Below, one piece after another: positions 5,392 through 19,955 of a DNA stretch of 64,000 nt (its first letter is position 1; each line of letters starts with the position of its first letter). The notes below the pieces were generated by a model that saw nothing but the letters and a program-made list of their open reading frames with translations, was not told the origin of the DNA and searched no databases. Origin of the DNA: an uncultured Solirubrobacteraceae bacterium. Lineage in GTDB: Bacteria; Actinomycetota; Thermoleophilia; Solirubrobacterales; Solirubrobacteraceae. The stretch spans positions 1,189,492 through 1,253,491 of the forward strand of contig OY970163.1 in NCBI GenBank assembly GCA_963706615.1, read 5' to 3'. The translations under genes and the position numbers were made by a program.

Positions 5392-6417
5392 TCAGATCAG
5401 CTCCAGGTCGCCAAGCGACAGCGCCCACGAGCGGCGCAGCGTCGGATCGGGGGCCAGGTCGTCGTGCAGCGGGTTGGCGGCGATCATCGCGGAACCGGGA
5501 GCGCGCACGAGCCCGCTTAGGGCGGCCGTTCGCCACGATGTGAGGGCGCATACGACGAGGTCTGCCGCGGACGCCCGGCGAACGTCGCGCACGAGCGTGC
5601 GCGTAAGACGAGCATCGTCGCGCTCGATCAGCAACTCGTGGATGTGCGCAACCGAGAACCGGCCCTGATGCTGCACGCGAAAGATCGCGACCCCCACCTG
5701 TCCGCGCCGGTCCTTGACGCAGAGCGCGCGATAGACGTTCAGCCGTCCGTAGCGCCAGCGCAGGAAATCCGGATCGCGGGCGGTCGAGATCCGCTCACCA
5801 TCGGTAGCGCTGCTAGACAGCGCGCGCTCGAGCAGCGCGTCGTCACCGAGCACAGAGGCAGCGCCGTCCGTTTCGCGTCCGACCAACGCGGCCGCGGCGC
5901 CACCGTGCACGGCCAGGCGCTTGACGCTCTCCCACGTGAGCGCGCCCGTGCCGGCAAAGCGCGGCAAGCCGCCAACGCGCCGGCGCCCGGATTTGAGCAC
6001 GCCGGTGCGACTTCGCTCGTTGGGATTGCTCCAACTCATCGCGATCTCCTCGGAGTAGCGCGCTCGCGTGGCGGCGATCAGCTGCATCGAGACGCCGCGC
6101 CGCTGAACGGCTGGATCGACGGCGAGGTCGACGCCGCGCATCGTCTGGCGGATCCGTCCGCCAAAGCGCAGGCGCCACGGCATCAACGCGATGCATCCGG
6201 CGAGCGCGCCGTCGGCCTCTGCGACCAGCACGATCGAGTGACCGAACGGGCTTTCGCGATGCTTCCAGCGAAAGAACGCCTGCGGCTCGGCGCCCTCGAT
6301 GCCCAGCGGCCAGCGTCCAAACGCACCCTGCAGCAGCTCGAGCACGCGCGGCAGGTCGTCGTCGCGAAAGTCGCGGACCGGCACGACCTCCGCACCCGGG
6401 GGTGCCTGCCCGCTCAC
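5392..6417 (-). CDS. GNAT-family N-acyltransferase (tandem-GNAT type)
   Basis: FFRWKHRESPFG, acyl-CoA motif A (DLAVDPAVQRRGVS) and RDPDFLRWRY. GTG 6417 overlaps the TGA of ASST-1 (GTGA). Confidence 0.8.
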   Translation of the reverse strand: MSGQAPPGAEVVPVRDFRDDDLPRVLELLQGAFGRWPLGIEGAEPQAFFRWKHRESPFGHSIVLVAEADGALAGCIALMPWRLRFGGRIRQTMRGVDLAVDPAVQRRGVSMQLIAATRARYSEEIAMSWSNPNERSRTGVLKSGRRRVGGLPRFAGTGALTWESVKRLAVHGGAAAALVGRETDGAASVLGDDALLERALSSSATDGERISTARDPDFLRWRYGRLNVYRALCVKDRRGQVGVAIFRVQHQGRFSVAHIHELLIERDDARLTRTLVRDVRRASAADLVVCALTSWRTAALSGLVRAPGSAMIAANPLHDDLAPDPTLRRSWALSLGDLELI

Positions 6418-8237
6418 GTCCTCGCCGTGGCCGCGGTGCCGATGACCTGGCCGGTGGCATCGAGCGCCTGCACCGTCATGTAACGCCCGCGCGCGCCCGG
6501 CGCGAGCGCGATAGCCGTCTCGAAGCCGCTGCGCGCCACCTGTGCGACCTGCTGCAGGCCGCTCGGATCTGGACCGGCCAGCACGCGCCAGCTGGTCACG
6601 AGCGTGGCGCCGTTCCAGCTGGCGTCGACGATCGACGCCCCGCCCGCGGCTGCCCGCACGACGAACGCGGGAGCGTGCGCCGGCGTGCCCGTCCACGCGA
6701 AGCGCAAGGCACGATAGGACTGCGTGTGCGCGGGGAAGTGCGCATCGAACAGCAGCGCCCCCGCGGAGTTGAACTCGGAGAATGTGCCAACCTGTCCCCA
6801 GCCCGCGAACCAGTCGCCGTTTTCCAGCGCCTGGAAGTTTCCCTGGCTGTCGGAGACCAGCGGGGGCGCGTGCAGGACCTGCGCGGCGAGCGTCGCCGTC
6901 TTGTGCTGCGCGTCGAGATCGACGACGATGCCGCGCGATTGACCGTGCACCTTGGGCGAGGCGCCGTTGTCGAAGATGCTGATCGCGCCACCGGCGAGCT
7001 CGCGCGGGTCGTGCTGCCAGGCGGTGCCCGTGCCTGGGCCCATGTGGAAGCTCGAGGCCTTGCCGCCGAGGCGCCAGAGGATCTGTCCGCTGCGGGGATC
7101 CAGGTCGTAGGCCGCCCAGGTGTTGCGCGCGGAGATCAGCAGGCTGGCGTCCTGGTCGACGTTGATCGAGTTGATGTGGAAGTAGTCGAACGGAGCGGCC
7201 GTCGAGGCCTGGCTCGCCTTCATGTAGGACTCCGCGAGGGCGACGTGGTCGAGGCTCGTCCACTGGAACATCACGAGGCCCGTCTTCACGTCGATCTCCT
7301 GAACGAGCCCGTCGGTGACCGCGTTGTTGGGGGAGCCTCCGGCGGTGGAGAGATCGCAGAGGATCGGGTCATACGCCGTGATCAGCGCTGTGCCCCGCTT
7401 GGTCAGCTGCAGATCGTGCAGGTCGGCTTCCAGGCCGTTGCCGGCGCGCACGTGAGCCACGGCGGTATAGGACTGATCGAAGATCACGCCTTCGCCGAGC
7501 CCGAAGCCGTGCACCGAGATGTCGCCCTGCCACCACGTCAGCACGGGCTTGCCGAGGTATTCCTGCACGCGCAGGTTCGTCGCGAACCTGCCGGGGGGCA
7601 GCGGCTTGAACCACACCATCGCCCCGCTCGCGTCGAGGATCATCGGGCCTGCCTGCCCTGGCCCGGTGTACGGCGCGACGAACTCCTCCCCGGGAGCCAC
7701 CGCCGGCGACTGCGCCGTGACCGTAACCTGCGGCGGGTGCAGGTCCGGGCGCGAGGAGAAGCCCTGGACATCGCTGGGATGCCCCGGGTAGATCGTCTCG
7801 GGCGTTCGCGTGATCGCGTCCTGCTCGCCGATCGCAAATATGTCGAGTACGCGCTCGACGCGAGCGCCGCTGCGCACCCGCGCGCGAGCGACCACCCGCT
7901 CGCCTTCGACGAACGGCCGAGCGGGCACGAAGCTGGCGCCGTCGCCCTGCGAGTAGGCCAACAGCCGCCCCGCGTGAGCGCCACTCTTAGAGCCGACGAC
8001 GCTCACGCCGCTGATCGCCCCCGCCGGGACGCCGAGGAAGCTAATCTGCGTCTGCGCGGTGGCGTCGCGGCTTCCCGACAGCGGCGACACGGTCACTAAC
8101 GCAGCCTTTATCGCCGACGTATTCAATGTCGAGGGCGTACAGCGTGGAGCGCGGGTCGCGGCGGTCGCCGGCGCGACGCACAGCGCGAGCGCCAGCGCCG
8201 CCACCAGTCCTACGATCAGAGCGCGTATGGAGAGCAT
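6414..8237 (-). CDS. Arylsulfotransferase (ASST)-like protein 1, Sec-secreted
   Basis: Signal peptide MLSIRALIVGLVAALALALCVAPATA, Ig-like N-domain, motifs DLHD / DYFHINS / SARNT / WQHD, C-terminal ASWNGAT...GFET domain. Confidence 0.82.
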   Translation of the reverse strand: MLSIRALIVGLVAALALALCVAPATAATRAPRCTPSTLNTSAIKAALVTVSPLSGSRDATAQTQISFLGVPAGAISGVSVVGSKSGAHAGRLLAYSQGDGASFVPARPFVEGERVVARARVRSGARVERVLDIFAIGEQDAITRTPETIYPGHPSDVQGFSSRPDLHPPQVTVTAQSPAVAPGEEFVAPYTGPGQAGPMILDASGAMVWFKPLPPGRFATNLRVQEYLGKPVLTWWQGDISVHGFGLGEGVIFDQSYTAVAHVRAGNGLEADLHDLQLTKRGTALITAYDPILCDLSTAGGSPNNAVTDGLVQEIDVKTGLVMFQWTSLDHVALAESYMKASQASTAAPFDYFHINSINVDQDASLLISARNTWAAYDLDPRSGQILWRLGGKASSFHMGPGTGTAWQHDPRELAGGAISIFDNGASPKVHGQSRGIVVDLDAQHKTATLAAQVLHAPPLVSDSQGNFQALENGDWFAGWGQVGTFSEFNSAGALLFDAHFPAHTQSYRALRFAWTGTPAHAPAFVVRAAAGGASIVDASWNGATLVTSWRVLAGPDPSGLQQVAQVARSGFETAIALAPGARGRYMTVQALDATGQVIGTAATART

Positions 8238-10047
8238 GGGCCCGGAGCAGGATAGGAAAGTGGATCGGCGGACATTCGTTAAGGGCGGGATCGCTGCGGG
8301 CGGCCTGCTCACGGGCGCCGGCCTGGGCATCGCGCGCTTGGCCGACGCCACCGAAGACTCCGGCGCCAGCGCCGCCTCGAGCGTGGCCCCGGCTCCGGTG
8401 TCGGTGGACCCGCAGCACCCGAACATACTGGTCATCCTCGTCGACCAGATGCGCTTCCCGGCGTGGTTCTCGCCGACGGGCGACGGATCGGGGCTTCCGC
8501 CGAACCTCGCGGCTCTGCGCCAGAACGCGGTTTCGTTCTCCGGTCACTACACAGCCGCCAACGACTGCACGCCGGCCCGCGCAACGCTGCTCACGGGGCT
8601 CTACACGCACCAGACGGGATGCATGATCACCGGCGGCAGCACGCTGGACCCGGGGTTCCCGACGTGGGGCACGATGCTGCGCGAGCAGGGCTATCGCACG
8701 CGGTGGTACGGCAAGTGGCACCTGACGCATCGCGACAATAGGTGGGGACCGCGTCGCGGCGAACGCGCGATGCAGCGCTACGGCTTTCACGGCGGGACCT
8801 TCCCCTCGCCCGACGGCGCGCCCGGGCAGGGCTGGCGCCTGGACGGGTACATCGCCCGCCAGTTCGCCAAGTGGTATGCCGAGGAGGGCGGCGCCGGGCC
8901 GTGGTGCACGACGGTGTCGTTCGTCAATCCGCACGACATCGCCTGGTGGTACGTGTGGAGCAACCGCGTGCGTGCGGAGACCAGCGCACGTCCCGTCGCC
9001 CGATCGCTGCCCGGCAACTTCGAGACCCCCGAACTGCTGACGCAACGCAACAAGCCCGTGCTGCAGCGCTCTCTGCAGGACACCGCCGCCGCCTCGTTCG
9101 GCGTGGTCCCCTTCGAAGGCCCGGAAGCGGACCAGCTGTGGATGCAGTTCCTCGACCTCTACGGCAAGCTGCAGCGCGAGGTCGACGTGCACATCGGCCG
9201 GGTGCTCGCGGCGCTCGACAGCCGTCCCCAGGTCGCGGCCAACACGGTGATCGTGTTCACCTCCGATCACGGCGAGTACGGCGGGTCGCACGGGCTGCGC
9301 GGCAAGGGCGCGGCGGCATACGAGGAGGCGCTGCGCGTGCCGCTGCTCGTCAAGGACAACCGCAACATGCTCACGCAGGCCCCCGAAACGACGCGCAGCC
9401 AGCTGACCTCGAGCGTCGACATCGCGCCGCTGCTGCTGACGATCGCCACCGGATCCAACGCCTGGCGAGGCGAGCCGCGTTACGACCACCTCGCCGCCCG
9501 CGCCGACCTCGCGGCGATCCTCGCCAACCCCAACGCCCCCGGGCGGCCGTACGTGCTGCACGCCACCGACGAGACCGTGACGGAGTTCGCCGTCCAGTCC
9601 TACGCCGCCGACGCGCCGCTGCACGTGGTCGCGCTGCGCACGCAGGAAGCCAAGTACGCCACGTACTCCAGCTGGCAGCCGGGCGGCATCGAGCCGCTGG
9701 CCACGAGCGAGGAACGCGAGCTGTATGACTACAGCAACGACAGCGGGCGCCTGGAGCTGCACAACAGCGCCGGCGAAGGCGGCCTCGAGAGCGGCCTGCG
9801 CGCGACGCACGAGCAGGCTCTCGCACAGGAGCTGCGCGCTCCGCTGCCGGGACGCTTCGGCGCCGCGCAGGCGCGCGGCTTCGCCGACTACTTTCAGGTC
9901 GCCAAGAACGCCGCCAACTCCGCGGCCGCGATGCACGAACGGCGCGCAAAACGCTACTTCGAAGGGCGGCAGGAACAGGGTGGCGTGTCGCCCGGCGAGA
10001 ATCGCGTCAAGCGGCTCAGATCCGCTTCGCGCGCGAGACGCCGATGA
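8236..10047 (+). CDS. Tat-exported Cys-type (formylglycine) sulfatase
   Basis: Twin-arginine DRRTFVKGG; PNILVILVDQ; CTPARATLLTG (CxPxR); YGKWHL; VNPHD; FTSDHGE; GLRGKG...YEEALRVPL. The start could be 8227, 8236 or 8260. Confidence 0.9.
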   Translation: MGPEQDRKVDRRTFVKGGIAAGGLLTGAGLGIARLADATEDSGASAASSVAPAPVSVDPQHPNILVILVDQMRFPAWFSPTGDGSGLPPNLAALRQNAVSFSGHYTAANDCTPARATLLTGLYTHQTGCMITGGSTLDPGFPTWGTMLREQGYRTRWYGKWHLTHRDNRWGPRRGERAMQRYGFHGGTFPSPDGAPGQGWRLDGYIARQFAKWYAEEGGAGPWCTTVSFVNPHDIAWWYVWSNRVRAETSARPVARSLPGNFETPELLTQRNKPVLQRSLQDTAAASFGVVPFEGPEADQLWMQFLDLYGKLQREVDVHIGRVLAALDSRPQVAANTVIVFTSDHGEYGGSHGLRGKGAAAYEEALRVPLLVKDNRNMLTQAPETTRSQLTSSVDIAPLLLTIATGSNAWRGEPRYDHLAARADLAAILANPNAPGRPYVLHATDETVTEFAVQSYAADAPLHVVALRTQEAKYATYSSWQPGGIEPLATSEERELYDYSNDSGRLELHNSAGEGGLESGLRATHEQALAQELRAPLPGRFGAAQARGFADYFQVAKNAANSAAAMHERRAKRYFEGRQEQGGVSPGENRVKRLRSASRARRR

Positions 10048-11917
10048 CGGCGCCCGCCGCATCGAGCGCCTGCACCTGTACGTAGCTGCCGACCGCGGCG
10101 CTCGTCAGAGCGACTGCCGTCTCAAAGCCGCCGCGCGGCGCCTGGCCCGCGGGCGCGAGGCTGCTCGGCGAAGGACCGGCCAGCACGCGCCAGGAGGCCA
10201 GCGCGGTCGCGCCGTTCCAGCTGGCATAAACGGTCGCCCCGCGGCCGTCTGGGGAACGCACCGTCGCCAGCGCCGGCGGTTCTGCAGGGCTCGCGCTCCA
10301 CGCCAGGCGATACGCCCGGTAGGACTCATACGACGCGGGCAGGTGCGCGTCGAACAGCAGTTGCCCGCCGGCGCCGTATTCGGTCAGGTACGGCATTTCG
10401 CCCCAGCCGACCATCCAGGCCCCGCCGGCGAGCTCCTGGACGTTGCCCTGGCTGCCGGCCACGAGCGCCTTGCCGGGATGCCCGGATTCGCGCACGAGCG
10501 TCGCGGTCATCCGCTGAGCGTCGAGACGCACGTCGATCGCGCGCGACTGCGCGTGGATCGCCGGCGTTGCGCCGTTGTCGAACAGCGTGATCGTCCCGTC
10601 GTTCTGTTCGCGCGCGTCGTGCTGCCAGGCCGTGTGCGTGCCCGGACCCATGTGGAAGCTGCTGCGCCGGCCGCCGAGCGCCCAGCGCACGCGCCCGCTG
10701 CGCGCGTCGATGTCGTAGGCGGCCCAGGTGTTGCGCGCGTCGACGAGCAGGTCGCCGTCGCTGCGCACGTCGACGGAGTTGATGTGAAAGAAGTCAAACG
10801 GCGTCGTGCGGCTCGCGTGCCTGGCCGAGGCATAGGAGTCCGACAGCGCGACGTGGTCGAGGCTGTGCCACTCGTACCTCACCAGCCCGGTCTTCAGGTC
10901 GAGTTCCTGAAACAGCGTGTCGGCGATCGCCGCATCGCGCGGTCCGCCGACCCTCGTGAGGTCGCAATCGATCGCGTCATAGACGGTGATCAACGCCGTG
11001 CCCCGGGGCGTGATCTGGAATTCGTGCAGGTCAGGCTGATAGCCGTTGCCCGCGCCCACGACCGCGATCCGGCGATAGGAGCTGTCCAAGACCACCTCGG
11101 CCGACTTGCTCTGGCCGCCGAAGATCAGCGGGTCCTGCCACCAGGTCAGCACCGGCCGGCCTTCGTATTGCTGGACGCGAAAGTCCGACGCGCGCGTGCC
11201 CGCGGGCGACAGTGGATCGAACCAGACCATCGAGCCGTCTTCGGCGAGGATCATCGGGCCGTACTGCCCGGGTCCGGAGTACGGCGCGATGAAGACGTCG
11301 CCCGGCGTAGTACCGGCCGCGCGCGCCGTGACGGCAACCGTCGGAGGCTGCAGGTCAGGCCGCGAGTGAAAGCTCTGGTAGGAGGCCTTCTCGGGCGCCG
11401 GGCGCGGGCTGCCGCCGGCGACGCCGCCGTGATCCTGCACGGCTGCCGTGAAGCTCCAGGCGAAGGGGGTCGTCGTCGCGCCGAAGCGCAGCTGCCCGTG
11501 GACGCTCACCCTCTCTCCCTGCGTGAACGGGCTGGAGGGGGCAAAGCTCGCTCCGTCGCCCTGCGAGTAAGTCATCAGCCGCCCCGCATGCCGGCCACTG
11601 AGCGAGCCCGTGACCGTGACGTGCGACAGCTCGCTCGCCGGCTGCCCGAGCATGCTGATCTGAGTCGAAACCGAGGCGTCACGCGAGTCGGGTGCAGGCG
11701 AGACGGTCACGTGCGAGCCGGCAAGCGCCGTCGACACGTTCAGCCGGGGCGGCGTGCAGCTCGGCGAGACGCTCGGTTCCCGAAACCTGCTCGCCGTGGC
11801 CCTCGCGTCGGCCCGCGCGAGACTCGAGTGCGTCCCAAGCGCGACGCCCGCCGGTGCGAGAAGCGCCAGCGCCGCGAGTGCAAGCGCTGGGCATGGCGGC
11901 GTGTGGCGGGGGCTCAC
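10016..11917 (-). CDS. ASST-like protein 2, Sec-secreted
   Basis: Same architecture as ASST-1: DLHEFQIT / DFFHINS / DARNT / WQHDAR. GTG 11917 overlaps the TGA of ASST-3. Confidence 0.82.
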   Translation of the reverse strand: MSPRHTPPCPALALAALALLAPAGVALGTHSSLARADARATASRFREPSVSPSCTPPRLNVSTALAGSHVTVSPAPDSRDASVSTQISMLGQPASELSHVTVTGSLSGRHAGRLMTYSQGDGASFAPSSPFTQGERVSVHGQLRFGATTTPFAWSFTAAVQDHGGVAGGSPRPAPEKASYQSFHSRPDLQPPTVAVTARAAGTTPGDVFIAPYSGPGQYGPMILAEDGSMVWFDPLSPAGTRASDFRVQQYEGRPVLTWWQDPLIFGGQSKSAEVVLDSSYRRIAVVGAGNGYQPDLHEFQITPRGTALITVYDAIDCDLTRVGGPRDAAIADTLFQELDLKTGLVRYEWHSLDHVALSDSYASARHASRTTPFDFFHINSVDVRSDGDLLVDARNTWAAYDIDARSGRVRWALGGRRSSFHMGPGTHTAWQHDAREQNDGTITLFDNGATPAIHAQSRAIDVRLDAQRMTATLVRESGHPGKALVAGSQGNVQELAGGAWMVGWGEMPYLTEYGAGGQLLFDAHLPASYESYRAYRLAWSASPAEPPALATVRSPDGRGATVYASWNGATALASWRVLAGPSPSSLAPAGQAPRGGFETAVALTSAAVGSYVQVQALDAAGAVIGVSRAKRI

Positions 11918-13704
11918 CCCTTGACCGTGGCCGACGTGCCGAGCACCGCGCCCGAGCCGTCGAGCGCCTGCGCCGCCACGTACGGACCGACGGTGTGCGC
12001 CGTGAGCGTCGTCTGAAAGCCGGACTTGGCAGCGGTCGCGACCGGCGCCAGCGCCGACGACGAGGGTCCGGCGAGCACCCGCCAAGAGGCGACCTCGGTG
12101 GCGCCGTTCCAGCTGACGTCGACGCTGACCGTCCCGCCGCTGCCCGCACGCGCGACGACCGCAGGCAACGTCGTCGGGCGCCCTTCCCAGGGCGAGAGGA
12201 AGGTCTTGAAGTTCTGGACGTTCCTACCGAGCGTGCCGTCGAGCAGGACGTGTCCCGATGCGTCGAACTCGGTGAAGTTCGGCAGCCGCCCATAGCCGAG
12301 CAGCCAGTTGCCCGCGGGCAGGCTCTGCGTGTTGCCCTGGCTTTCGGCCAGCAGCGTCTTGGTCGGATTGACGAACTGCTTGACCAGGCTGACCGTGTGG
12401 CCCGACGTGTCGGCCCGCAGCAGCAGCCCCCGCGATTGCTTCTCCTTCGGAGGGTCCGAGCCGTTGTCGAAGAGCGAGATCAGCCCGCCGGGCTGGAACT
12501 CGGCGTCGTGCTGCCAGTAGAAGCGCGTCCCGGGTCCCTGGCGGAAGCTGCTGTGCGCACCGCCCAGTCGCCAGACGATGCGCCCCGTGGCGATGTCGAG
12601 GTCGTACACGGTCCAGGTGTTGCGCACGGAGACCATCACGTCGTTGGAGGGGCCGGGGTCGACCGAGTTGAGGTGGGCGTAGTCCCACGGATAGTTCTGC
12701 GGAACGGGGTTGTTCGAGTCGGCTACCGGGATGTGTCCGAGCGTGTGCCACTCCCACATCACCAGCCCCGTCTTGATGTCGACCTCCTGCACGACCGAAT
12801 CGCTGAGGATCCCGTGGGCGGGACCGTGCACGCCCGAGAGGTTCGCGCTGATCGGGTCGAACGCGTCGATCCACGCGGTGCCTTGCGGCGTGATGCGTAT
12901 CTCGTGCAGGTCGGCGTGATAGCCGTTGCCGGCCCTGACCGTCGCGATGCGCCGGTATGAGCTGTCATAGATGACATCCTCGCCCTCGCCGAACCCGGCC
13001 TGGATGATCCTGCCCTGCCACCACGTGAGCACGGGTTTGCCCTGGTACTGCTCGACTTGGAGATTGGTCGACGATTCGCCCGCGCCCAGCGGCTTGAACC
13101 AGACGAGGCTGCCGTTCTGTTCGGCGATCATCGGCCCTGGCGTGCCCTGGCCCTGGTAGGGCGCGAGGAACAGGTCGCCGGGCGTAGTGCCGGGCTTTGC
13201 GGCTGTCGTGATGCGCACGGTCGACGGGGTCAGCGTCGGCGCCGAGCTGTAGTGCTGGACCGCGCGTGCGTCGCCCGGGTTCAGCGGGAACCCCTTCTGG
13301 CTGACCGCCGCCTGGTGGGCGATCGTGAAGCTCGTGCCGATCGGCGTCGCGCCGGCCTTGGCGTGGACGATCACCTTCTCGCCCGGGCGAAACGCGTGGC
13401 TGGGCAGGAAGCTCGCGCCTGTGCCCGTCGAGTAGGCGCGCAGGACGCCTGTATGGGCGCCGCTGCTGGAGCCGGTCACGCGCACGTCAGAAACCTGCGT
13501 GCCGGGGACGCCGAGGAAGCTGATCTGCGTGCCCGGCGAGGCGTCCGGCGTGCCCGGCTGCGGCGACACGGCCACCGAGCCTGCGGCGGCCCTCGCGACG
13601 GGGGGGTCCAGCGCGGCGGACGTGGCCGGCGAAGCGCCGCCGCATGCCGCCACGCCGGCGACGGTCGCGAGCGCGGTGACGAGAATGCCGGCGGGACGGA
13701 GCAT
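11914..13704 (-). CDS. ASST-like protein 3, lipoprotein
   Basis: Lipobox-like VAAC-GG; DLHEIRIT / DYAHLNS / SVRNT / WQHDAE. Alternative start GTG 13719. Confidence 0.82.
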   Translation of the reverse strand: MLRPAGILVTALATVAGVAACGGASPATSAALDPPVARAAAGSVAVSPQPGTPDASPGTQISFLGVPGTQVSDVRVTGSSSGAHTGVLRAYSTGTGASFLPSHAFRPGEKVIVHAKAGATPIGTSFTIAHQAAVSQKGFPLNPGDARAVQHYSSAPTLTPSTVRITTAAKPGTTPGDLFLAPYQGQGTPGPMIAEQNGSLVWFKPLGAGESSTNLQVEQYQGKPVLTWWQGRIIQAGFGEGEDVIYDSSYRRIATVRAGNGYHADLHEIRITPQGTAWIDAFDPISANLSGVHGPAHGILSDSVVQEVDIKTGLVMWEWHTLGHIPVADSNNPVPQNYPWDYAHLNSVDPGPSNDVMVSVRNTWTVYDLDIATGRIVWRLGGAHSSFRQGPGTRFYWQHDAEFQPGGLISLFDNGSDPPKEKQSRGLLLRADTSGHTVSLVKQFVNPTKTLLAESQGNTQSLPAGNWLLGYGRLPNFTEFDASGHVLLDGTLGRNVQNFKTFLSPWEGRPTTLPAVVARAGSGGTVSVDVSWNGATEVASWRVLAGPSSSALAPVATAAKSGFQTTLTAHTVGPYVAAQALDGSGAVLGTSATVKG

Positions 13705-13885
13705 GCCGAGCGGGCTCACCCTCGCCTGATGCGCTTCAGCCGACTCTGGCGCTGTCGCGGGAACTGTCCGTGCGGGCTCGTCAAGGTCGGCGATCCTATC
13801 CGGTCGCCAGGCGGCGGGAGCCAGGCGCTGCGCGGGCGCCGGCACGGTGTTCGGGGTCTGCCGCTGCGAACGCGAGGCAGCGCGC

Positions 13886-16855
13886 TCACGAGCTCGAGGC
13901 GAACGGCCGCGTGACGCCGATCACCCTGCCGCCGGTGCCGAGAGCCTGGATCTGAAAGCTCTTGTAGCCCTGCGGCACGGTGATCGCCGTCTCGAACCCG
14001 GACTTGGCGTGGCTCGCGACGGCGCTCAGCCGACCGCCTTCGGGTCCCGCGAGGACTCTCCAGGACGCCACCTGCGTCGCGCCGTTCCAGCTCGCGTAGG
14101 CGATCGTCTTGCCGTCGGCGCTGCGGGCGGCGCCGGCGGGGGCAGCGAGCGGGAGGCCGACCCACTGCTCGAGCGTCGCTCGGTAGGTCAGGTCGGGCCC
14201 CGGGAGTTCCCCTTCGAACAGCAGTTTTCCGGCTCGGTCGAACTCAGAGAAGAACGGTTCCGATCCCCAACCGACGAACACGTTGCCGTTGGACAGCGGC
14301 TGCGTGTCGCCCATGTAGTCGGAATGAAAACCGCCGCCGTTGCCATATTGAGCCGCGAGCGTCGCCGTGCGCGTCTGCTGGTCGAGCTTCAGCACGAGCC
14401 CCCGAGACGCCCCCGTCGGATTGACGTAGGTCCCCCCGCCGGTCAGCTGGCAGCAGTGATCGTCGTACAGGCTGACCGTCGAGCCGGGCTGCAGCCTCGC
14501 GTCGTGCTGCCACTCGAAGGCGGCTCCCGGACCGAGGTCGAAGCTCGACTCGTTGCCGCCGAGCGTCCATTGGATCTTGCCGCTGGCGCTGTCGACGAGG
14601 TAGGCGGCCCAGGTGTCGCGCATCGAGACGAGGAAGGTCCCGTGAGCGCCCAGGTCGATCGAGTTGACATGGTAAGCGTCCCACGGGAACCCGTTCGTCG
14701 GCAGCGAGGCTCGCGACTCGCTCAGCGGGATGTGCTGCAGCGCATCCCAGCTGCGCTGCAGCTTGCCGCTGTTGAGGTCGTACTCCTGCACGGCAGAGTC
14801 GATCACCGCGCCGTTGTAGGCGCCCCCGTACTTGGACAGGTCCATCGGGATGTTCCTGTTCGCGGTCACCCACGCGTGGTCGCCGTCGATCACGAGCTCG
14901 TGCAGGGTGAGCACCCAGCCGTCCTTTGCTTTCAATCGCGCGAGCAGCTGGTAGTGCTGGTCGACCACCACGTATTCGCCGCTTTCGGTCGCTCCGGTGT
15001 TCGTGACCACGCCCTGCCACCAGGCGAGCGCCGGCTTGCCGCGATAGGTCTGCAGGCTGAGGTTGGAGGCGACGAGCTTTTCCGGCACCGGCTGGAACCA
15101 GACCGGCTGCAGGCCTCGGTCGAGGATCAACGGCCCGCTCTGACCGACGATCGGCGGTTCGTTGAGGTCGTAGAAGTTCGCGGCGAAGATGTAGCCCGGC
15201 GCGGGCCGTCCCGCCGGCGCCTGCTTGACGCTGCGGACCTCGGGGGGATGCAGCGACGGGGCGGTGACGAAGCTGAAGGCGCCCTTGGTCGTGTACGCCC
15301 CGATCGGAGCGCCGTGGGAGCCTGAGAACGCGGCCGTGAGCACGACGAAGACCGCGAGCACGGCGGCGATTGCCAGCGCAAAGCGCCGTGGCGCAGCTCC
15401 CAGCGCAGCGTCGGGCCTGGGCAGCGAGGTGAACGTGATGACCGCTGCCACCGCGGCCAGGCCGGCTCCGATCAGGTAGGCGAGCCGAAAGCCGTCGGTC
15501 AGCGCCGGCGCCACCTGTTCGCCCGAGCCGATCAGGTGGGTGGTGCGCTGCGTCGCGAACGTGATCAGCATCGCCAGCCCCAGGCCGCCGCCCACCTGAC
15601 GCGACGTGTTGACCAGACCTGACGCGAGCCCCGCCTGGCCCTCCCTGGCGCCCTGCGTCGCGGCGATCGTCGAGGGCACGATCGACATCGCGATCCCCGC
15701 CGCCGTGAGCACTCCGGGAATCACCACGTAGACGATCGGGCTGCCGCTGGAGCCGATCCTCGTGAACAGCAGCAGGCCGCCGGTCAGCATGATCAGCCCG
15801 CCGCCGAGCACCGGGCGCACGCCGAATCGGCTCACGAGCTTTCCCGCGCGCGAGGCTATGAGCATGATCGTCAACGTCATCGGCAGGAAGATCAGCCCGG
15901 TGTGCAGCGGCGAGAGCCCCAGCACCTGCTGCAGGTACAGAGAGCCCACGAACCACATCGGAAAGAGCGCCGCGCTGAACAGCAGGACGACGGTGTTGGC
16001 GGTTCTCAGCGGCTTGGTCAGCTGCTTGAACGGGATCAGCGGGGCCGAGGCCACGCGCGTCTCGATCACGCCGAAGGTCCCGAGCAGGACCAGACCGAGG
16101 ACGATCGGACCGAGCGCGGCGAGCGTGCCCCAGCCCTTCAGGCCCGCTTCCACGACGCCGTACACGACCACCATCTGACCGATCGTCAGCGTGAGCGCGC
16201 CCGCGAGGTCGAAGGGGGCGGCGTCACGGCCCTTGCGCCGCTCCGCCACGACCGCGTAGGCGACCGCGGCCGCGGCGATCGCGATCGGGGGATTGATCAG
16301 CAGGACCCAGCGCCAGCTGAGCACTTCGGTGATGATCCCTCCGAGCAGCACGCCGGCGGCGCCGCCGAGCCCGTTCATCGCTGCCCAGATGCCGATCGCA
16401 CGGTGCAGCTTCGGACCCGGCGGAAACGACCCGGTGATGATCGCCAGCGAGGTCGCCGCCATGAGCGCCCCGGCGAGACCCTGCACGGCGCGAGCGGCGA
16501 TCAGCACGCCCTGGTCGGGCGCCGCGCCGCCGGCGAGCGAGGCGAGCGCGAACAGGACGAGCCCGGCGACGAGCGTCCGGCGCTGCCCGAAGTGGTCGGC
16601 GACTCGGCCGCCGAGCATCAAGAAGCCCGCGAACGTGATCGCGTACGCGTCGACGACCCATTGCAGGTCGGGCGAGGAGAAGCCCAGGCTCGACTGGATC
16701 GAGGGCAGCGCGACGTTGACGATGCTCAGGTCGAGGATGACCATGAACTGAGCCACGCAGCAGACGGTCAGCAGCCACGCCGAACCCGAGCGCTTGTCGC
16801 TCTCGACAGGGGGCGTCTGCGGCACGCCAGGACTCGCTGTCGTCTCGACGCTCAC
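13886..16855 (-). CDS. Fusion of a DHA2-type (14-TM) MFS transporter and an ASST-like domain (ASST-4)
   Basis: N-half: QFMVILDLSIVNVALPSI, GGRVADHFGQRR, WRWVLLINPP, ASGLVNTSRQVGGGLG. One extra TM helix follows, then TLHE / DAYHVNS / SMRDT / WQHDAR / ASWNGAT in one uninterrupted frame. Confidence 0.85.
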   Translation of the reverse strand: MSVETTASPGVPQTPPVESDKRSGSAWLLTVCCVAQFMVILDLSIVNVALPSIQSSLGFSSPDLQWVVDAYAITFAGFLMLGGRVADHFGQRRTLVAGLVLFALASLAGGAAPDQGVLIAARAVQGLAGALMAATSLAIITGSFPPGPKLHRAIGIWAAMNGLGGAAGVLLGGIITEVLSWRWVLLINPPIAIAAAAVAYAVVAERRKGRDAAPFDLAGALTLTIGQMVVVYGVVEAGLKGWGTLAALGPIVLGLVLLGTFGVIETRVASAPLIPFKQLTKPLRTANTVVLLFSAALFPMWFVGSLYLQQVLGLSPLHTGLIFLPMTLTIMLIASRAGKLVSRFGVRPVLGGGLIMLTGGLLLFTRIGSSGSPIVYVVIPGVLTAAGIAMSIVPSTIAATQGAREGQAGLASGLVNTSRQVGGGLGLAMLITFATQRTTHLIGSGEQVAPALTDGFRLAYLIGAGLAAVAAVITFTSLPRPDAALGAAPRRFALAIAAVLAVFVVLTAAFSGSHGAPIGAYTTKGAFSFVTAPSLHPPEVRSVKQAPAGRPAPGYIFAANFYDLNEPPIVGQSGPLILDRGLQPVWFQPVPEKLVASNLSLQTYRGKPALAWWQGVVTNTGATESGEYVVVDQHYQLLARLKAKDGWVLTLHELVIDGDHAWVTANRNIPMDLSKYGGAYNGAVIDSAVQEYDLNSGKLQRSWDALQHIPLSESRASLPTNGFPWDAYHVNSIDLGAHGTFLVSMRDTWAAYLVDSASGKIQWTLGGNESSFDLGPGAAFEWQHDARLQPGSTVSLYDDHCCQLTGGGTYVNPTGASRGLVLKLDQQTRTATLAAQYGNGGGFHSDYMGDTQPLSNGNVFVGWGSEPFFSEFDRAGKLLFEGELPGPDLTYRATLEQWVGLPLAAPAGAARSADGKTIAYASWNGATQVASWRVLAGPEGGRLSAVASHAKSGFETAITVPQGYKSFQIQALGTGGRVIGVTRPFASSS

Positions 16856-16910
16856 GGGCGCCCGCCCAACTGCGAAAGGCAGCGCAGACGGCTGGTAGGG
16901 TGGGCGCCCG
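16855..16910. promoter_or_regulatory. Inverted repeat/hairpin in the divergent intergenic region
   Basis: Arms CGGGCGCCCGCCC (16855-16867) and GGGTGGGCGCCCG (16898-16910), with an inner CTGC-GAAAG-GCAG hairpin. Confidence 0.45.
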
Positions 16911-16940
16911 AGCCCTCGCGCGACGATTGGAGTCCGCCCC

Positions 16941-17126
16941 ATGAGAAGAACGCCACTGACCGCCATGCTAACGGCGCTGGCCGTCCTGGCGAGCACCGTC
17001 GCGGTGGCAGGGTGCGGCAGCAGCTCCTCCTCGTCCACGGCCTCGACGAGCACGACGCCGACGTCGAGCACCACGCCGACGAGCACGACGACGACGCCCA
17101 AGCACAAGTCCAAACCGGCCTACTAG
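16941..17126 (+). CDS. 61-aa Ser/Thr-rich lipopeptide
   Basis: GGAG SD, basic N-terminus, hydrophobic core, lipobox VAGC, then GSSSSSSTASTSTTPTSSTTPTSTTTTPKHKSKPAY. Confidence 0.75.
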   Translation: MRRTPLTAMLTALAVLASTVAVAGCGSSSSSSTASTSTTPTSSTTPTSTTTTPKHKSKPAY

Positions 17127-17183
17127 ACAACCGGAGGACTCGTCCGCGGCACCGCGTCGCGGCGCGCTCGCCGAGCATCGCGC

Positions 17184-19085
17184 TCATCCCGCCTGCCCCG
17201 AGCCCGGCAGCGAAGCCGCGTAGCTGATCACGCCGACCGTCTTTGACGTGCCTAGCACGCGCCCGGCCCGGTCGAGCGCCTGCACGGCGACGTAGGCGTG
17301 CTGCTGGGGCAGCGTCATGGAGCTCTCGAAGTCGTCGGCGGGGATGCTCGTCTGCGCCTTCAGCGATTCGGGCTGCTCGCCCGCCAGCACCCGCCACGCC
17401 GTCACCTCGGTCGCGCCGTTCCAGCTGGCGTGCACGATCGTCTCTTCGCCCGTGTCGTTCAGGCTGGCGAGCACCGCCGGCAGGCTCGACGGGCGACCGC
17501 TCCAGGGGAAGCGGAAGGCGCGGTAGAAGGACATGTCCAGCGGCTGATGCGCGTCGAACAGCAGCGAGCCATCGCTGGCGAACTCGCTGATCGCCGGCAC
17601 TCCGCCGTAGCCGACGAGCGTGCTCCCGCCGGCCAGCGTTTGCGCGTTGCCCTGGCTTGCCGCGAGCAGCGGCGGGTCGCGGTGCGTGTAGACGGCAGCG
17701 AGGCTCGCCTTGTGAGCCTTCAGGTCGAGCTTGATCCGGATCGCGCGCGACTGGCTGTGGATCGGCGGATTGGAGCCGTCGTCGAAGAAGCTGACGTCTC
17801 CGTTGGCGAGCAGGCGGCCGTCGTGCTGCCAGGCCATCCTCGTGCCCGGGCCCATCTGGAAGGAGCTCTTGTTGCCGCCCAGGCGCCAGAGCACGTTGCC
17901 GCTGGTCCCGTCCAGCTGATAGCCCGCCCAGGTGCTGCGCGCCGAGATCAGAAGATTGCCGTCGGCCTCGCGATCGATCGAGTTGAGATGGAAGTAATCC
18001 CAGGGCGTCGCCTGCGTCGGCGCTTCGACTTCTGACTCCGAAGCGCCGACGTGATCGAGGCTGTGCCATTCCCAGCGCACGAGGCCCGTCTTCATGTCGA
18101 TCTGCTGGATCGCCGTGTCCAGGATCGACCCATCCGCCACCCCCTTCACCGGCGTGAGGTCGCAGCGGACCGGGTTGTACGCCGTGATCAAGGCGACCCC
18201 ATGCGCGGCGATCTGGAAGTCGTGCAGGTCGGCCTTCAGGCCATTGGCGCCGGGGAGCCTGGCGAGGACCCGGTAGTGGGAGTCCATCACGATGTCTTCG
18301 CCCTGACCGAAGCCGGCCGAGAGCACGCGCCCCTTCCACCACGTCAGCACGCGGCGGCCTTCGTAGGTCTGCTCGCTCAGGTTCTCCGCCGTCTCGCCGC
18401 CCGACAGCTTGTCGAACCAGACCAGCCGGCCGGCCGGCGTGTAGATCAACGGCCCGTATTGGCCTGGACCCGGCCCGTTGGTCGTGAGGATGTCGCCGGC
18501 CGCGGGATCACGATCGGGAGCGGTGACCGTCATGACCGGGGCCTGGACGCCGGGCATCGTGTAGAAGCTCCGATAGTCGGCGGGCGCCGCCTGTGGGTTG
18601 CCGAACGACGGCGTGCTCGCTGTCGAATACGGAGTGTCGACGCCAAACCGAAATGCGACCGGCTTGGCGCCGGTGCCGACGCCGATCACCGCACGCACCG
18701 AGACGCTCTCGCCGGCCGCGAACGGGGCGTCGGGCGCGAAGCTCGCCCCATCGCCCTGCGCGTAGCCGCGCATGCTCCCGGCGTGCCGGCCGCTGTGCGA
18801 TCCCACGACGGTGACCTCGCGGATCGCCGCGGCCGGCGGGCCCAGAAAGCTGATCTGCGTGTTCGGATTGGCCGTGTTCGTGTCCGGCGCCGGCGAGACG
18901 TCCACGCCGGCGCCCGCCAGTGCGGCGCTGTGCGCGAGCGTGGCCGGCAGGCACGAAGGCGCCACGCGGATGCGCGCGCTGGAGCTTCCCGACGACAGCT
19001 TCAGGCTCGGCGACCCCAGCACGATCGCCAGCACGCCCCAGACGAGCACGACGGCCCCCAGGATGATGAGTACGTTGCGGCGCAT
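17184..19085 (-). CDS. ASST-like protein 5, N-terminal TM anchor/signal
   Basis: MRRNVLIILGAVVLVWGVLAIVLG; DLHDFQIA / DYFHLNS / SARST / WQHDGR / ASWNGAT. Confidence 0.82.
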   Translation of the reverse strand: MRRNVLIILGAVVLVWGVLAIVLGSPSLKLSSGSSSARIRVAPSCLPATLAHSAALAGAGVDVSPAPDTNTANPNTQISFLGPPAAAIREVTVVGSHSGRHAGSMRGYAQGDGASFAPDAPFAAGESVSVRAVIGVGTGAKPVAFRFGVDTPYSTASTPSFGNPQAAPADYRSFYTMPGVQAPVMTVTAPDRDPAAGDILTTNGPGPGQYGPLIYTPAGRLVWFDKLSGGETAENLSEQTYEGRRVLTWWKGRVLSAGFGQGEDIVMDSHYRVLARLPGANGLKADLHDFQIAAHGVALITAYNPVRCDLTPVKGVADGSILDTAIQQIDMKTGLVRWEWHSLDHVGASESEVEAPTQATPWDYFHLNSIDREADGNLLISARSTWAGYQLDGTSGNVLWRLGGNKSSFQMGPGTRMAWQHDGRLLANGDVSFFDDGSNPPIHSQSRAIRIKLDLKAHKASLAAVYTHRDPPLLAASQGNAQTLAGGSTLVGYGGVPAISEFASDGSLLFDAHQPLDMSFYRAFRFPWSGRPSSLPAVLASLNDTGEETIVHASWNGATEVTAWRVLAGEQPESLKAQTSIPADDFESSMTLPQQHAYVAVQALDRAGRVLGTSKTVGVISYAASLPGSGQAG

Positions 19086-19274
19086 GTGCGATTCGACAGC
19101 TCGAGCGCGGGCGGGTCGCGCCCGCGGGTGTCGAGGCGGGAAGGGTGCCACATCCGCCGCAGGCCAACGTAAGAGTTTGCTTCGGCCCCGCCCGGCCAGC
19201 GCAGGGTCGCCACGCGAGCGCGCCGACGCGCCGCACCGGCGCGACCCGCAACCGACACGAGTAGCCTCGGGTGC

Positions 19275-19955
19275 ATCAGACCGCTCGCCCTCACCGTCGT
19301 TTCACTGATCGCGCTGGCGACGGCGCCGACCGCGGCGCTCGGCGCTTCCGCCGACGTGGCCACGACCGAAACCTACGTGCGCGCGAACTATGCCCTGGTG
19401 AGCGCCGGGCGGGCCAAGCTCGCGAGCGCCGAAAGCGCGCTGCAAGGACTGCTGGCGCGCATGCGGCGCGAATGCCCGATGGTCGTCGCCGGATCGCCAC
19501 AGAACGAAGCGTCGGAAAAGCTCACCTGGGAGGTCGCTGCGACGATGCGGCTCGTCGCATTCCATCGCGTGGCCGGGCCGATCGGCGCCTTCGCGCGCAC
19601 CGCGCGTAAGCTGCATTGGAGCAACGCGACGCTCACGAGCGGCGTCCACGAATACGCGCGCCGGCTGAACGCCGAGGCGACCGCCACGCCGCCTGACCTG
19701 TGCGCCGATCTGCGCACGTGGAAGGCCAGCGGCTACACGAAGCTGCCCGCCGACACGATTCCTTTCGATAACGCCTACTACCCGGTCCAGGCGATCGGCA
19801 TGTTGCCCAGGCAAATGCTCGCCCCCTTCCTGTCGTCCGCTCAGAACGGAGTCCTTCAGCGGACCAATCAGCTCGAAGGCCAGCTTTACGACTTCGAAGC
19901 AAACGCCGTGGAAACGTGGGGAAGCATCATGGACGCCGTCGCGCTGAACCCGTAG
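19275..19955 (+). CDS. Secreted hypothetical helical protein (start uncertain: ATC 19275 or GTG 19356)
   Basis: An in-frame signal-peptide-like stretch (I/M)RPLALTVVSLIALATAPTAALGASA precedes the 199-aa ORF. TAGCCT lies 7 nt before the ATC. Confidence 0.55.
   Translation: MRPLALTVVSLIALATAPTAALGASADVATTETYVRANYALVSAGRAKLASAESALQGLLARMRRECPMVVAGSPQNEASEKLTWEVAATMRLVAFHRVAGPIGAFARTARKLHWSNATLTSGVHEYARRLNAEATATPPDLCADLRTWKASGYTKLPADTIPFDNAYYPVQAIGMLPRQMLAPFLSSAQNGVLQRTNQLEGQLYDFEANAVETWGSIMDAVALNP

Follow-up and report, generated by a model that had tools for sequence, protein, structure and literature searches.

We report that the gene on the minus strand at positions 13886 to 16855 of a 64,000-nucleotide stretch of DNA from an uncultured Solirubrobacteraceae bacterium (assembly GCA_963706615.1, contig OY970163.1, positions 1,189,492 to 1,253,491; the whole stretch is called the window below, and the genome it belongs to the source genome) encodes a single protein in which an exporter of the major facilitator superfamily (MFS) continues into an aryl-sulfate sulfotransferase (ASST) domain. 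The fusion is real, and it is not annotated as a fusion. Head-to-head with it lies a small gene, also not annotated, for a lipoprotein that ends in tyrosine. The parts come from known families; their arrangement, an exporter, an enzyme predicted to face outward and a tyrosine arm supplied in cis or in trans, is conserved and uncharacterised. We propose, at what we judge to be even chances, that the fusion would perform the membrane step in a sulfate relay, running from a cytoplasmic PF17784 sulfotransferase through a small carrier and the MFS part to His784 of the ASST domain, and from there to a tethered tyrosine. The two genes are as follows.

13886 to 16855, minus strand: MFS-ASST fusion gene, 989 aa, GTG start.
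16941 to 17126, plus strand: 61-aa lipoprotein gene, not annotated, head-to-head with the fusion; lipobox VAGC, C-terminal Tyr.

The minus-strand frame from 16855 to 13886 is free of stop codons over its 989 residues. Pfam places MFS_1 at residues 33-426 (E 7e-50) and Arylsulfotran_2 at 604-881 (E 2e-42), and the fusion scores 145.8 bits against the PF14269 profile, whose cut-off is 27. The junction between the two parts is bridged without a gap by contigs of two sequencing runs from two different studies (X2, 15144-15686; X6, 15144-15685), and no insertion or deletion is listed across the 4 runs compared; these contigs cover the junction, none reaches across the whole gene, and one of the runs, X1, possibly stems from the source sample. 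Of the 120 best homologues listed, the first being the window's own gene call, every one has both Pfam domains and aligns over 96-100% of the query. After clustering at 50%, one representative spans the entire fusion. Two ESM Atlas clusters, with 83 and 51 members, also combine the two domains; their automatic name is MFS transporter. The first-pass annotation of this DNA, made from its letters, had described a complete MFS running in frame into an ASST through the linker RPDAALGAAPRR and one extra helix FALAIAAVLAVFVVLTAAFS (residues 492-511, at 15382-15323). It had called for read coverage across 15250-15450, and it would have given way to a stop or frameshift at the junction or to homologues that are always two genes. 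The linker and helix lie as it described, the contigs of both studies cross the interval in question, and neither of the adverse outcomes was seen, all 120 listed homologues being fused over their full length. An assembly artefact or a read-through of two genes is thus ruled out by the junction-spanning contigs and the full-length two-domain homologues.

The longest open reading frame (ORF) begins further upstream, at 17113. We rejected this start, since the extension is the antisense shadow of the lipoprotein gene at 16941-17126 on the plus strand; 16855 is more likely the true start. In P0002 and about 35 other homologues, gene calls of about 1070 aa contain roughly 80 extra hydrophobic-looking residues that are the antisense of the lipoprotein gene, and it is through this shadowing that the small gene stays hidden. 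A search of 13700-17400 for sigma-70-type promoter or terminator matches gave none, and no RNA data set was listed as containing this sequence.

The fusion recurs in related bacteria. A scan of species genomes, from which the best 80 of 619 stretches were retained, gave 79 loci; the contig titles name Solirubrobacteraceae or Solirubrobacterales for 78 of them and Polyangia for one (L067), which may be a misbin or a transfer. An intact fusion of more than 900 aa is present in 72 of the 79; in 3 the 5' motif is missing, and 4 are shorter because a contig ends or the frame is broken. A sample of 200 genomes drawn evenly from the family, in whose tallies one unpublished genome (G451) is counted once, contained the ASST subtype of the fusion in 19 genomes from 8 of 51 genera, the source genus included, and the in-frame fusion was present in all 19; the genome samples come from one collection and may overlap. 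A class-wide draw of 300 genomes held two more junction-spanning cases, in another order. A quick tree of ASST cores without tails (79 cores; midpoint root; the row of the sixth paralogue left out) groups all 26 fused domains together, with an SH-like approximate likelihood ratio (SH-aLRT) value of 99, among secreted stand-alone enzymes, and a single origin of the fusion would be the simplest reading. Separately, a 5'-broken or truncated fusion from another family (genome G030) was seen at L112:6186-8297, near polyketide synthase (PKS) and PF17784 genes.

Within the fusion, the following parts can be told apart; counts over 73 refer to the aligned fusion rows.

15425 to 16786, minus strand: 14-helix DHA2-type MFS domain, residues 24-477, from Pfam, model and motifs.
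15386 to 15424, minus strand: short, predicted cytoplasmic loop that follows helix 14 and ends in Arg-Arg; R490 in 71/73, R491 in 65/73.
15323 to 15394, minus strand: 15th helix, residues 488-511 (about), from hydropathy, model and alignment with stand-alone signal peptides.
13889 to 15283, minus strand: Cpz4-like ASST domain, residues 525-988; H652, H729, N731, R746 and H784 invariant.
14504 to 14506, minus strand: His784 in a QHD motif, putative sulfo-carrying histidine by correspondence with EcAST His436.
14450 to 14455, minus strand: adjacent Cys801-Cys802 in a loop insertion, a subfamily mark absent from the four window paralogues.

Our structure model of the fusion (predicted local distance difference test, pLDDT, 92.5; predicted template modelling score, pTM, 0.90; 142 alignment rows) lays out 14 MFS helices, a 15th helix at 488-509 and then a beta domain. 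The helix count is taken from the model, the hydropathy scan by itself having broken up helix 5 and overlooked helix 13; helix 15 is the highest 19-residue hydropathy peak in the fusion (2.79). In the MFS part, D42, motif A (G83, D87, G90, R92), R122 and the Gly-rich helix 5 are kept in 71-73 of the 73 rows, and we take these to be the motifs of DHA2 pumps known as motif A, the helix-1 acidic residue, the helix-4 Arg and the Gly-rich helix 5. Fourteen helices with both ends in the cytoplasm, as in DHA2 pumps, are predicted from the model, the loop charges and the EfpA fold. The score against TIGR00711 is 192.8 bits, under the curated cut-off of 230.2; by modelled fold and by motifs the MFS part resembles a DHA2 pump, though it falls outside TIGR00711. 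In the ASST part, H652, H729, N731, R746 and H784 are conserved in 73 of 73 rows, align with the same residues of Cpz4 and are kept in all four window paralogues, A1 to A4. This set corresponds to H252/H356/N358/R374/H436 of EcAST as given in the portion of PMC13426309 used here. The Cys-Cys loop, present in 72 of 73 rows, marks the subtype. The fused ASST would very probably be enzymatically active. It aligns with the paralogues only from their residues 180-226 onward, so that it lacks their N-domain, as had been seen at first pass; since the model covers the crystallised Cpz4 chain almost whole (454 of 463 residues), this is no defect in the fused enzyme. The Ig-like nature then given to the N-domain is a lead at most: its Atlas score against Big_5 clusters is 0.87, below the 0.9 mark, and two paralogues scanned gave no Pfam match for it at E 0.5.

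The 15th helix bears on where the enzyme sits. Counted with helix boundaries set by hand, Lys and Arg number 19 in the eight segments predicted to lie inside and 2 in the seven outside loops. The closest stand-alone relatives, with a median identity of 51% to the fused ASST (35-37% for the window paralogues), begin with a hydrophobic N-terminus in 115 of 120 cases, followed by an APIG motif that is also found after helix 15. From this alignment, helix 15 is likely the former signal peptide of such stand-alone relatives, and its position both supports an outside placement and raises the possibility of cleavage, which we weigh below. The earlier proposal that a 15th helix preceded by Arg-Arg puts the ASST outside thus finds support, as a prediction, in the confident model, the loop charges and the signal-peptide-bearing relatives. 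We hold with high confidence that the ASST domain lies outside the membrane.

The product of the small divergent gene starts with MRR and has the VAGC lipobox, a Ser/Thr-rich mature chain of 37 aa, a basic patch and a terminal Tyr. It shows a basic n-region, a hydrophobic h-region and a lipobox Cys and is predicted to be lipidated; the Cys is invariant in 49 aligned mature chains, where it is also part of the search pattern. Such a lipoprotein, in every case Tyr-ended, occurs in 76 of the 77 loci in which the region is present (73 of the 79 by scan and 3 by hand; the region is missing from 2 loci and the gene from 1), and in the family sample a Tyr-ended partner stands at 18 of 19 fusion loci. 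The first-pass annotation had overlooked this gene, although no other partner of the fusion is as constant. For comparison, 15 of 1394 ORFs in the source genome end in Tyr. The mature chains are 25-153 aa long, with a single further Tyr in 3134 residues. A cause at the level of the DNA for the terminal Tyr codon is unlikely, since tails of all these lengths retain the residue while its codon varies between TAC and TAT and the three stop codons and the neighbouring synonymous codons vary as well. In L219, G116 and G176, the divergently transcribed partner is larger and carries a Tyr tail; it is assigned to PF03640 by scan in G116 and G176 and by resemblance in L219.

A terminal tyrosine is also found on enzymes of this kind. 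It is present in 115 of 120 closest stand-alone relatives, counted with a query that carried its own tail, in 0 of 119 fusions and in 0 of 180 paralogues of the A1-A4 types. The tail of the stand-alone relatives is flexible and about 17 residues long; a model of one such relative leaves it disordered (pLDDT under 50), with no docking. Taking this together with the Tyr lipoprotein beside the fusions, the tail appears to be supplied in cis if the enzyme is free and in trans if it is fused. The predicted complex of the ASST domain with the peptide scored 0.05. Several related proteins were seen along the way: a large family of secreted stand-alone Cys-Cys ASSTs in Solirubrobacterales with a Tyr-ended tail (P0272-P0390), a tailed enzyme of this type lying 5 kb from the fusion of its genome (G507), an ASST fused to PF03640 and ending in Tyr (P0214), and a protein of 1006 aa with two ASST domains in tandem (P0131). 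PF03640 (Lipoprotein_15) proteins come in two kinds (G000:C1:41845-42415 and near 44750; L220-L269), one of which has a Ser/Gly/Thr/Pro tail ending in Tyr, often as GYGY; this tail is possibly an undescribed C-terminal tag. The source genome has three low-complexity Tyr-ended ORFs, two of them PF03640.

The donor side of the proposed relay is suggested by gene co-occurrence. PF17784, the family of sulfotransferases that depend on 3'-phosphoadenosine-5'-phosphosulfate (PAPS), was found in 19 of 19 fusion genomes and in 13 of the 181 others of the 200-genome family sample, the fusion genomes being kin and not independent, and spanning 8 genera. It occurs in 10 of 69 genomes that have an ASST without the fusion, and within mixed genera the two co-vary (both in 5 of 6 genomes of g17 and in 1 of 2 of g114). 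Genes for CysC, CysD or CysN, PF17784 or a type III PKS lie in the examined flanks of 21 of the 79 and 10 of the 19 loci. In G017 a single locus brings together CysC, PKS, PF17784, A1, the lipopeptide and the fusion, and locus L219 has CysDNC with PF17784. The type III PKS stands beside PF17784 in 18 of 30 PF17784 loci, and its best match is Pks11, of the alpha-pyrone type. The best PDB matches of the PF17784 protein are 9KF1/9KF2 and SgdX2; we take 9KF1 to be Cpz8, which the match itself does not show. The source genome encodes CysD, CysNC and one PF17784 protein, whose gene lies 2.7 kb from a sixth ASST; in several relatives, too, ASST and PF17784 genes are close together. That sixth ASST (G000:C1:1335573-1340888; L110:7574-12889) is followed by a double-TetR regulator, a small lipoprotein-like ORF, an MpsC-family ORF and the PF17784 sulfotransferase. 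Elsewhere, a polysaccharide cluster (G000:C1:800000-848000; L107-L109) combines CysD, CysNC and five PF13469 sulfotransferases with glycosyltransferases and Wzz-like and ABC genes, and probably makes a sulfated exopolysaccharide by the ordinary PAPS route.

We suggest the following mechanism for the relay. PAPS is cytoplasmic. A cytoplasmic PAPS-dependent PF17784 sulfotransferase would load sulfate onto a small aromatic carrier, which could be the type III PKS pyrone where a PKS gene is present; in the source genome the carrier would be something else, or the PKS gene may be unassembled. The MFS part would export the sulfated carrier; His784 of the fused ASST would then accept the sulfuryl group, which would go on to the terminal Tyr of the neighbouring lipid-anchored peptide. 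The resulting sulfotyrosine, itself an aryl sulfate, could then feed the exported paralogues A1-A4 and, after them, surface acceptors, while the sulfatase of the locus may have an editing or recycling role. These steps do not carry equal weight. We lean toward export of a sulfated donor by the MFS part, and we regard sulfation of the lipoprotein tyrosine by the fused ASST as evenly balanced; that the tethered tyrosine acts as a swinging-arm carrier, handing sulfate to a battery of surface sulfotransferases with no export of PAPS, is a tentative and rather doubtful extension. By analogy, the gene set may best be read as a caprazamycin-type two-step sulfation that includes a transporter and has its second enzyme outside. 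The first-pass annotation had coupled either export, of a sulfate-shuttle donor or of an acceptor, to sulfuryl transfer at the pore exit, or uptake to desulfation. Of these, the sulfate-shuttle donor is favoured by the linkage with PF17784, PAPS and PKS genes; export of an acceptor and uptake coupled to desulfation gained no support, though neither is refuted.

Several observations weigh against such a relay. Donor-side genes are missing from the flanks in 58 of the 79 loci and from the window. No type III PKS was found in the source genome (88.7% complete) by two Pfam models or tblastn; among 24 congeners, 18 have one and in 6 none was found. The PF17784 association is weakened by the kinship noted above, and the tail count on the stand-alone relatives by the tailed query: in a tail-free search, a Tyr end was found in 7 of 13 complete stand-alone Cys-Cys ASSTs and in 0 of 16 other ASSTs. 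In two loci (L085, L205) the fusion stands without a Tyr peptide. Low-complexity Tyr-ended tails occur on PF03640 proteins in 2 of 11 genomes with no PF14269 match and in 9 of 24 ASST-rich genomes (Fisher p 0.44), so that such tails are not confined to sulfate transfer. Helix 15 ends in an A-x-A site in 56 of the 73 fusion rows, and the enzyme may therefore be cut free. In G235 (L177:8600-10400), a related MFS lies unfused between ASST paralogues, and fusion is thus not required there; a Cys-Cys ASST and a Tyr lipopeptide were looked for in this genome, and neither was found.

These points bring in other explanations. Helix 15 could be an internal signal peptide that is cleaved, the polyprotein yielding an MFS and a released secreted ASST that are coupled by co-expression alone, with transport in either direction. 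Consistent with this, helix 15 aligns with signal peptides that look cleavable (A-x-A before APIG in 56 of 82 stand-alone relatives), possible signal-peptidase sites follow it at A509-F-S511 and S513-H-G515, small residues occupy 509/511 in 68 of 73 and 513/515 in 60 of 73 fusions, and the MFS of G235 is unfused. But helix 15 is more hydrophobic than the stand-alone signal peptides, with a peak of at least 2.18 across the 73 rows, and better conserved, the Phe of its region being kept in 175 of 176 sequences; moreover, the A-F-A site is absent from some intact fusions (L112, L218, L219). The whole-chain pTM also suggests a fixed arrangement, though models are blind to cleavage. Because the site is lost in some fusions and the helix exceeds signal peptides in both hydrophobicity and conservation, we consider cleavage unlikely. 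Sulfotyrosine might instead be the end product, the fused enzyme marking the lipopeptide and other Tyr-ended surface proteins with no relay to A1-A4. Several surface proteins do carry Tyr tails, including the three of the source genome, and at three loci the partner of the fusion is a PF03640-type protein with such a tail and not a bare arm. We find this rather improbable all the same, since the bare, domainless tether of 25-45 aa that in most loci separates the fusion from A1 suits a carrier better, a tail on the secreted enzyme itself would be odd for a product, and the many ASSTs of fusion genomes need a donor.

The Tyr tail could also be a general envelope tag, used for anchoring, cross-linking or sorting, while the fusion exports a donor and sulfates another acceptor directly. 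This would account for the tails in genomes without PF14269, for the 6 of 13 distant Cys-Cys ASSTs that have no tail and for the two fusion loci without the peptide. It sits poorly with the strict complementarity of the tail, in cis on the stand-alone enzymes, absent from the fusions and in trans in 76 of 77 loci, and with phenols being the preferred acceptors of ASSTs in the portions of PMC13426309 and bioRxiv 10.64898/2026.10.08.757636 used here; we regard it as quite unlikely. A detoxification trap, in which a phenol or pyrone would leave unsulfated through the MFS and then be sulfated by the outside enzyme from environmental aryl sulfates, blocking re-entry, would agree with the efflux pumps among the best transporter matches (EfpA, QacA, LmrA-like) and with the PKS that adjoins the fusion without PF17784 in 15-16 of 79 loci. 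It would leave the PAPS genes, the PF17784 linkage and the tyrosine arm unexplained, however, and is improbable. Uptake is more improbable still. Here outside ASSTs would strip soil aryl sulfates, the MFS would import the phenol and an exported sulfatase would free sulfate for nutrition; the sulfatase of 53 of the 79 loci and the exported look of all the locus enzymes fit this, but the transporter is of the DHA2 efflux type, the linkage is to sulfate-activating genes and not to sulfur-starvation or aromatic-catabolism genes, and a sulfatase alone would be enough. The sulfate relay with the fusion as its membrane step is the reading that we retain, at the even chances given above.

The enzymes around the fusion in the window are as follows.

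17184 to 19151, minus strand: ASST paralogue A1, N-terminal hydrophobic anchor; 67 best matches in the 79 loci.
11914 to 13845, minus strand: ASST paralogue A2, lipobox-like N-terminus.
10016 to 11911, minus strand: ASST paralogue A3, signal-peptide-like N-terminus.
6414 to 8435, minus strand: ASST paralogue A4, signal-peptide-like N-terminus.
8059 to 10047, plus strand: sulfatase with a twin-arginine-like signal (DRRTFV) and CxPxR.

A1 is the most constant enzyme neighbour of the fusion. Besides the four paralogues in the window, a fifth lies elsewhere in the genome, and the median number of ASST matches in a fusion genome is 7. The sulfatase probably starts near 8227-8236; among 50 homologues, CxPxR is found in all 50 and the twin-arginine-like motif in 42. 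For a sulfatase maturation enzyme, the source genome gave a lone PF03781 match, which is a DinB-FGE protein, and no match to TIGR03942. No secondary-metabolite cluster holding all sulfation steps with a known acceptor was found among the genes common to the 79 loci. Two further ORFs were noted in the window: one of 199 aa at 19356-19955 on the plus strand, with no Pfam family, which stands beside A1 in 25 of 79 loci and whose homologues have signal-like N-termini, and a GNAT-domain ORF after A4 at 5392-7263 on the minus strand, present in 5 of 79 loci.

No description of an MFS-ASST fusion or of the tyrosine arm was found in open PubMed Central papers and bioRxiv. A 2026 review states, in the portion used here, that more than 40 years have passed without the identification of a natural ASST donor, and that the physiological roles of these enzymes are poorly understood (PMC13426309). 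The fusion locus supplies concrete candidates for such a donor pathway. If the relay is true, it would show how activated sulfate crosses a bacterial membrane and would offer a PAPS-independent route to bacterial tyrosine sulfation, as well as an enzyme shaped by evolution for sulfating a C-terminal tyrosine, which could be useful in biocatalysis. If the tethered Tyr is a carrier between outside enzymes, it would be a new kind of system, one of extracellular sulfation without the export of PAPS.

Each part of the arrangement recalls a known system. SoxYZ is a swinging-arm sulfur carrier that moves between extracytoplasmic enzymes, and its terminal residue on a flexible arm resembles the tethered tyrosine; we intend this as an analogy alone and claim no homology, since SoxYZ uses a Cys thiol on a folded protein, whereas the lipopeptide would use a Tyr-O-sulfate. 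The MFS part shares with EfpA, QacA and EmrB the 14-helix fold (template modelling score, TM-score, 0.77-0.82; 0.82 for EfpA), motif A, the helix-1 Asp and the Gly-rich helix 5, and differs from them in its 15th helix and enzyme, its TIGR00711 score under the cut-off and the absence of a resistance context. On the enzyme side, the portions of PMC13426309 and bioRxiv 10.64898/2026.10.08.757636 used here describe EcAST as extracytoplasmic, and EcAST and ASTB of D. hafniense as having a His-His-Asn-Arg-His site that works by a ping-pong mechanism via sulfo-His; in the same portion of PMC13426309, ASSTs accept tyrosine peptides in vitro, with aryl sulfates as sole donors. The fold match of the model to EcAST (AssT of E. 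coli CFT073; 3ELQ, 3ETS, 3ETT) is weaker, at E 1e-9, and EcAST and ASTB are soluble, with an N-terminal beta-sandwich and no transporter fusion.

The caprazamycin pathway, whose scheme we take to be named Cpz6/Cpz8/Cpz4, offers the fullest comparison. In the portion of PMC6731281 used here, the caprazamycin of Streptomyces sp. MK730-62F2 is sulfated in two steps by Cpz8 and Cpz4, fed by a type III PKS pyrone that, once sulfated, links the steps. A PF17784 sulfotransferase, an alpha-pyrone-type PKS and an ASST likewise all occur with the fusion; it differs in its 5-10 ASST paralogues and its sulfatase, in having no linked antibiotic cluster and in the PKS not found in the source genome. The model of the fusion resembles Cpz4 (9KF4/9KF6) with a TM-score of 0.92-0.93, 36-37% identity and the same catalytic residues, and aligns with 9KF6 over 447 residues (Z 49.4, root-mean-square deviation 1.8). 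Compared with Cpz4, the ASST of the fusion stands behind an MFS and is predicted to lie outside, with a Cys-Cys loop and a Tyr arm added.

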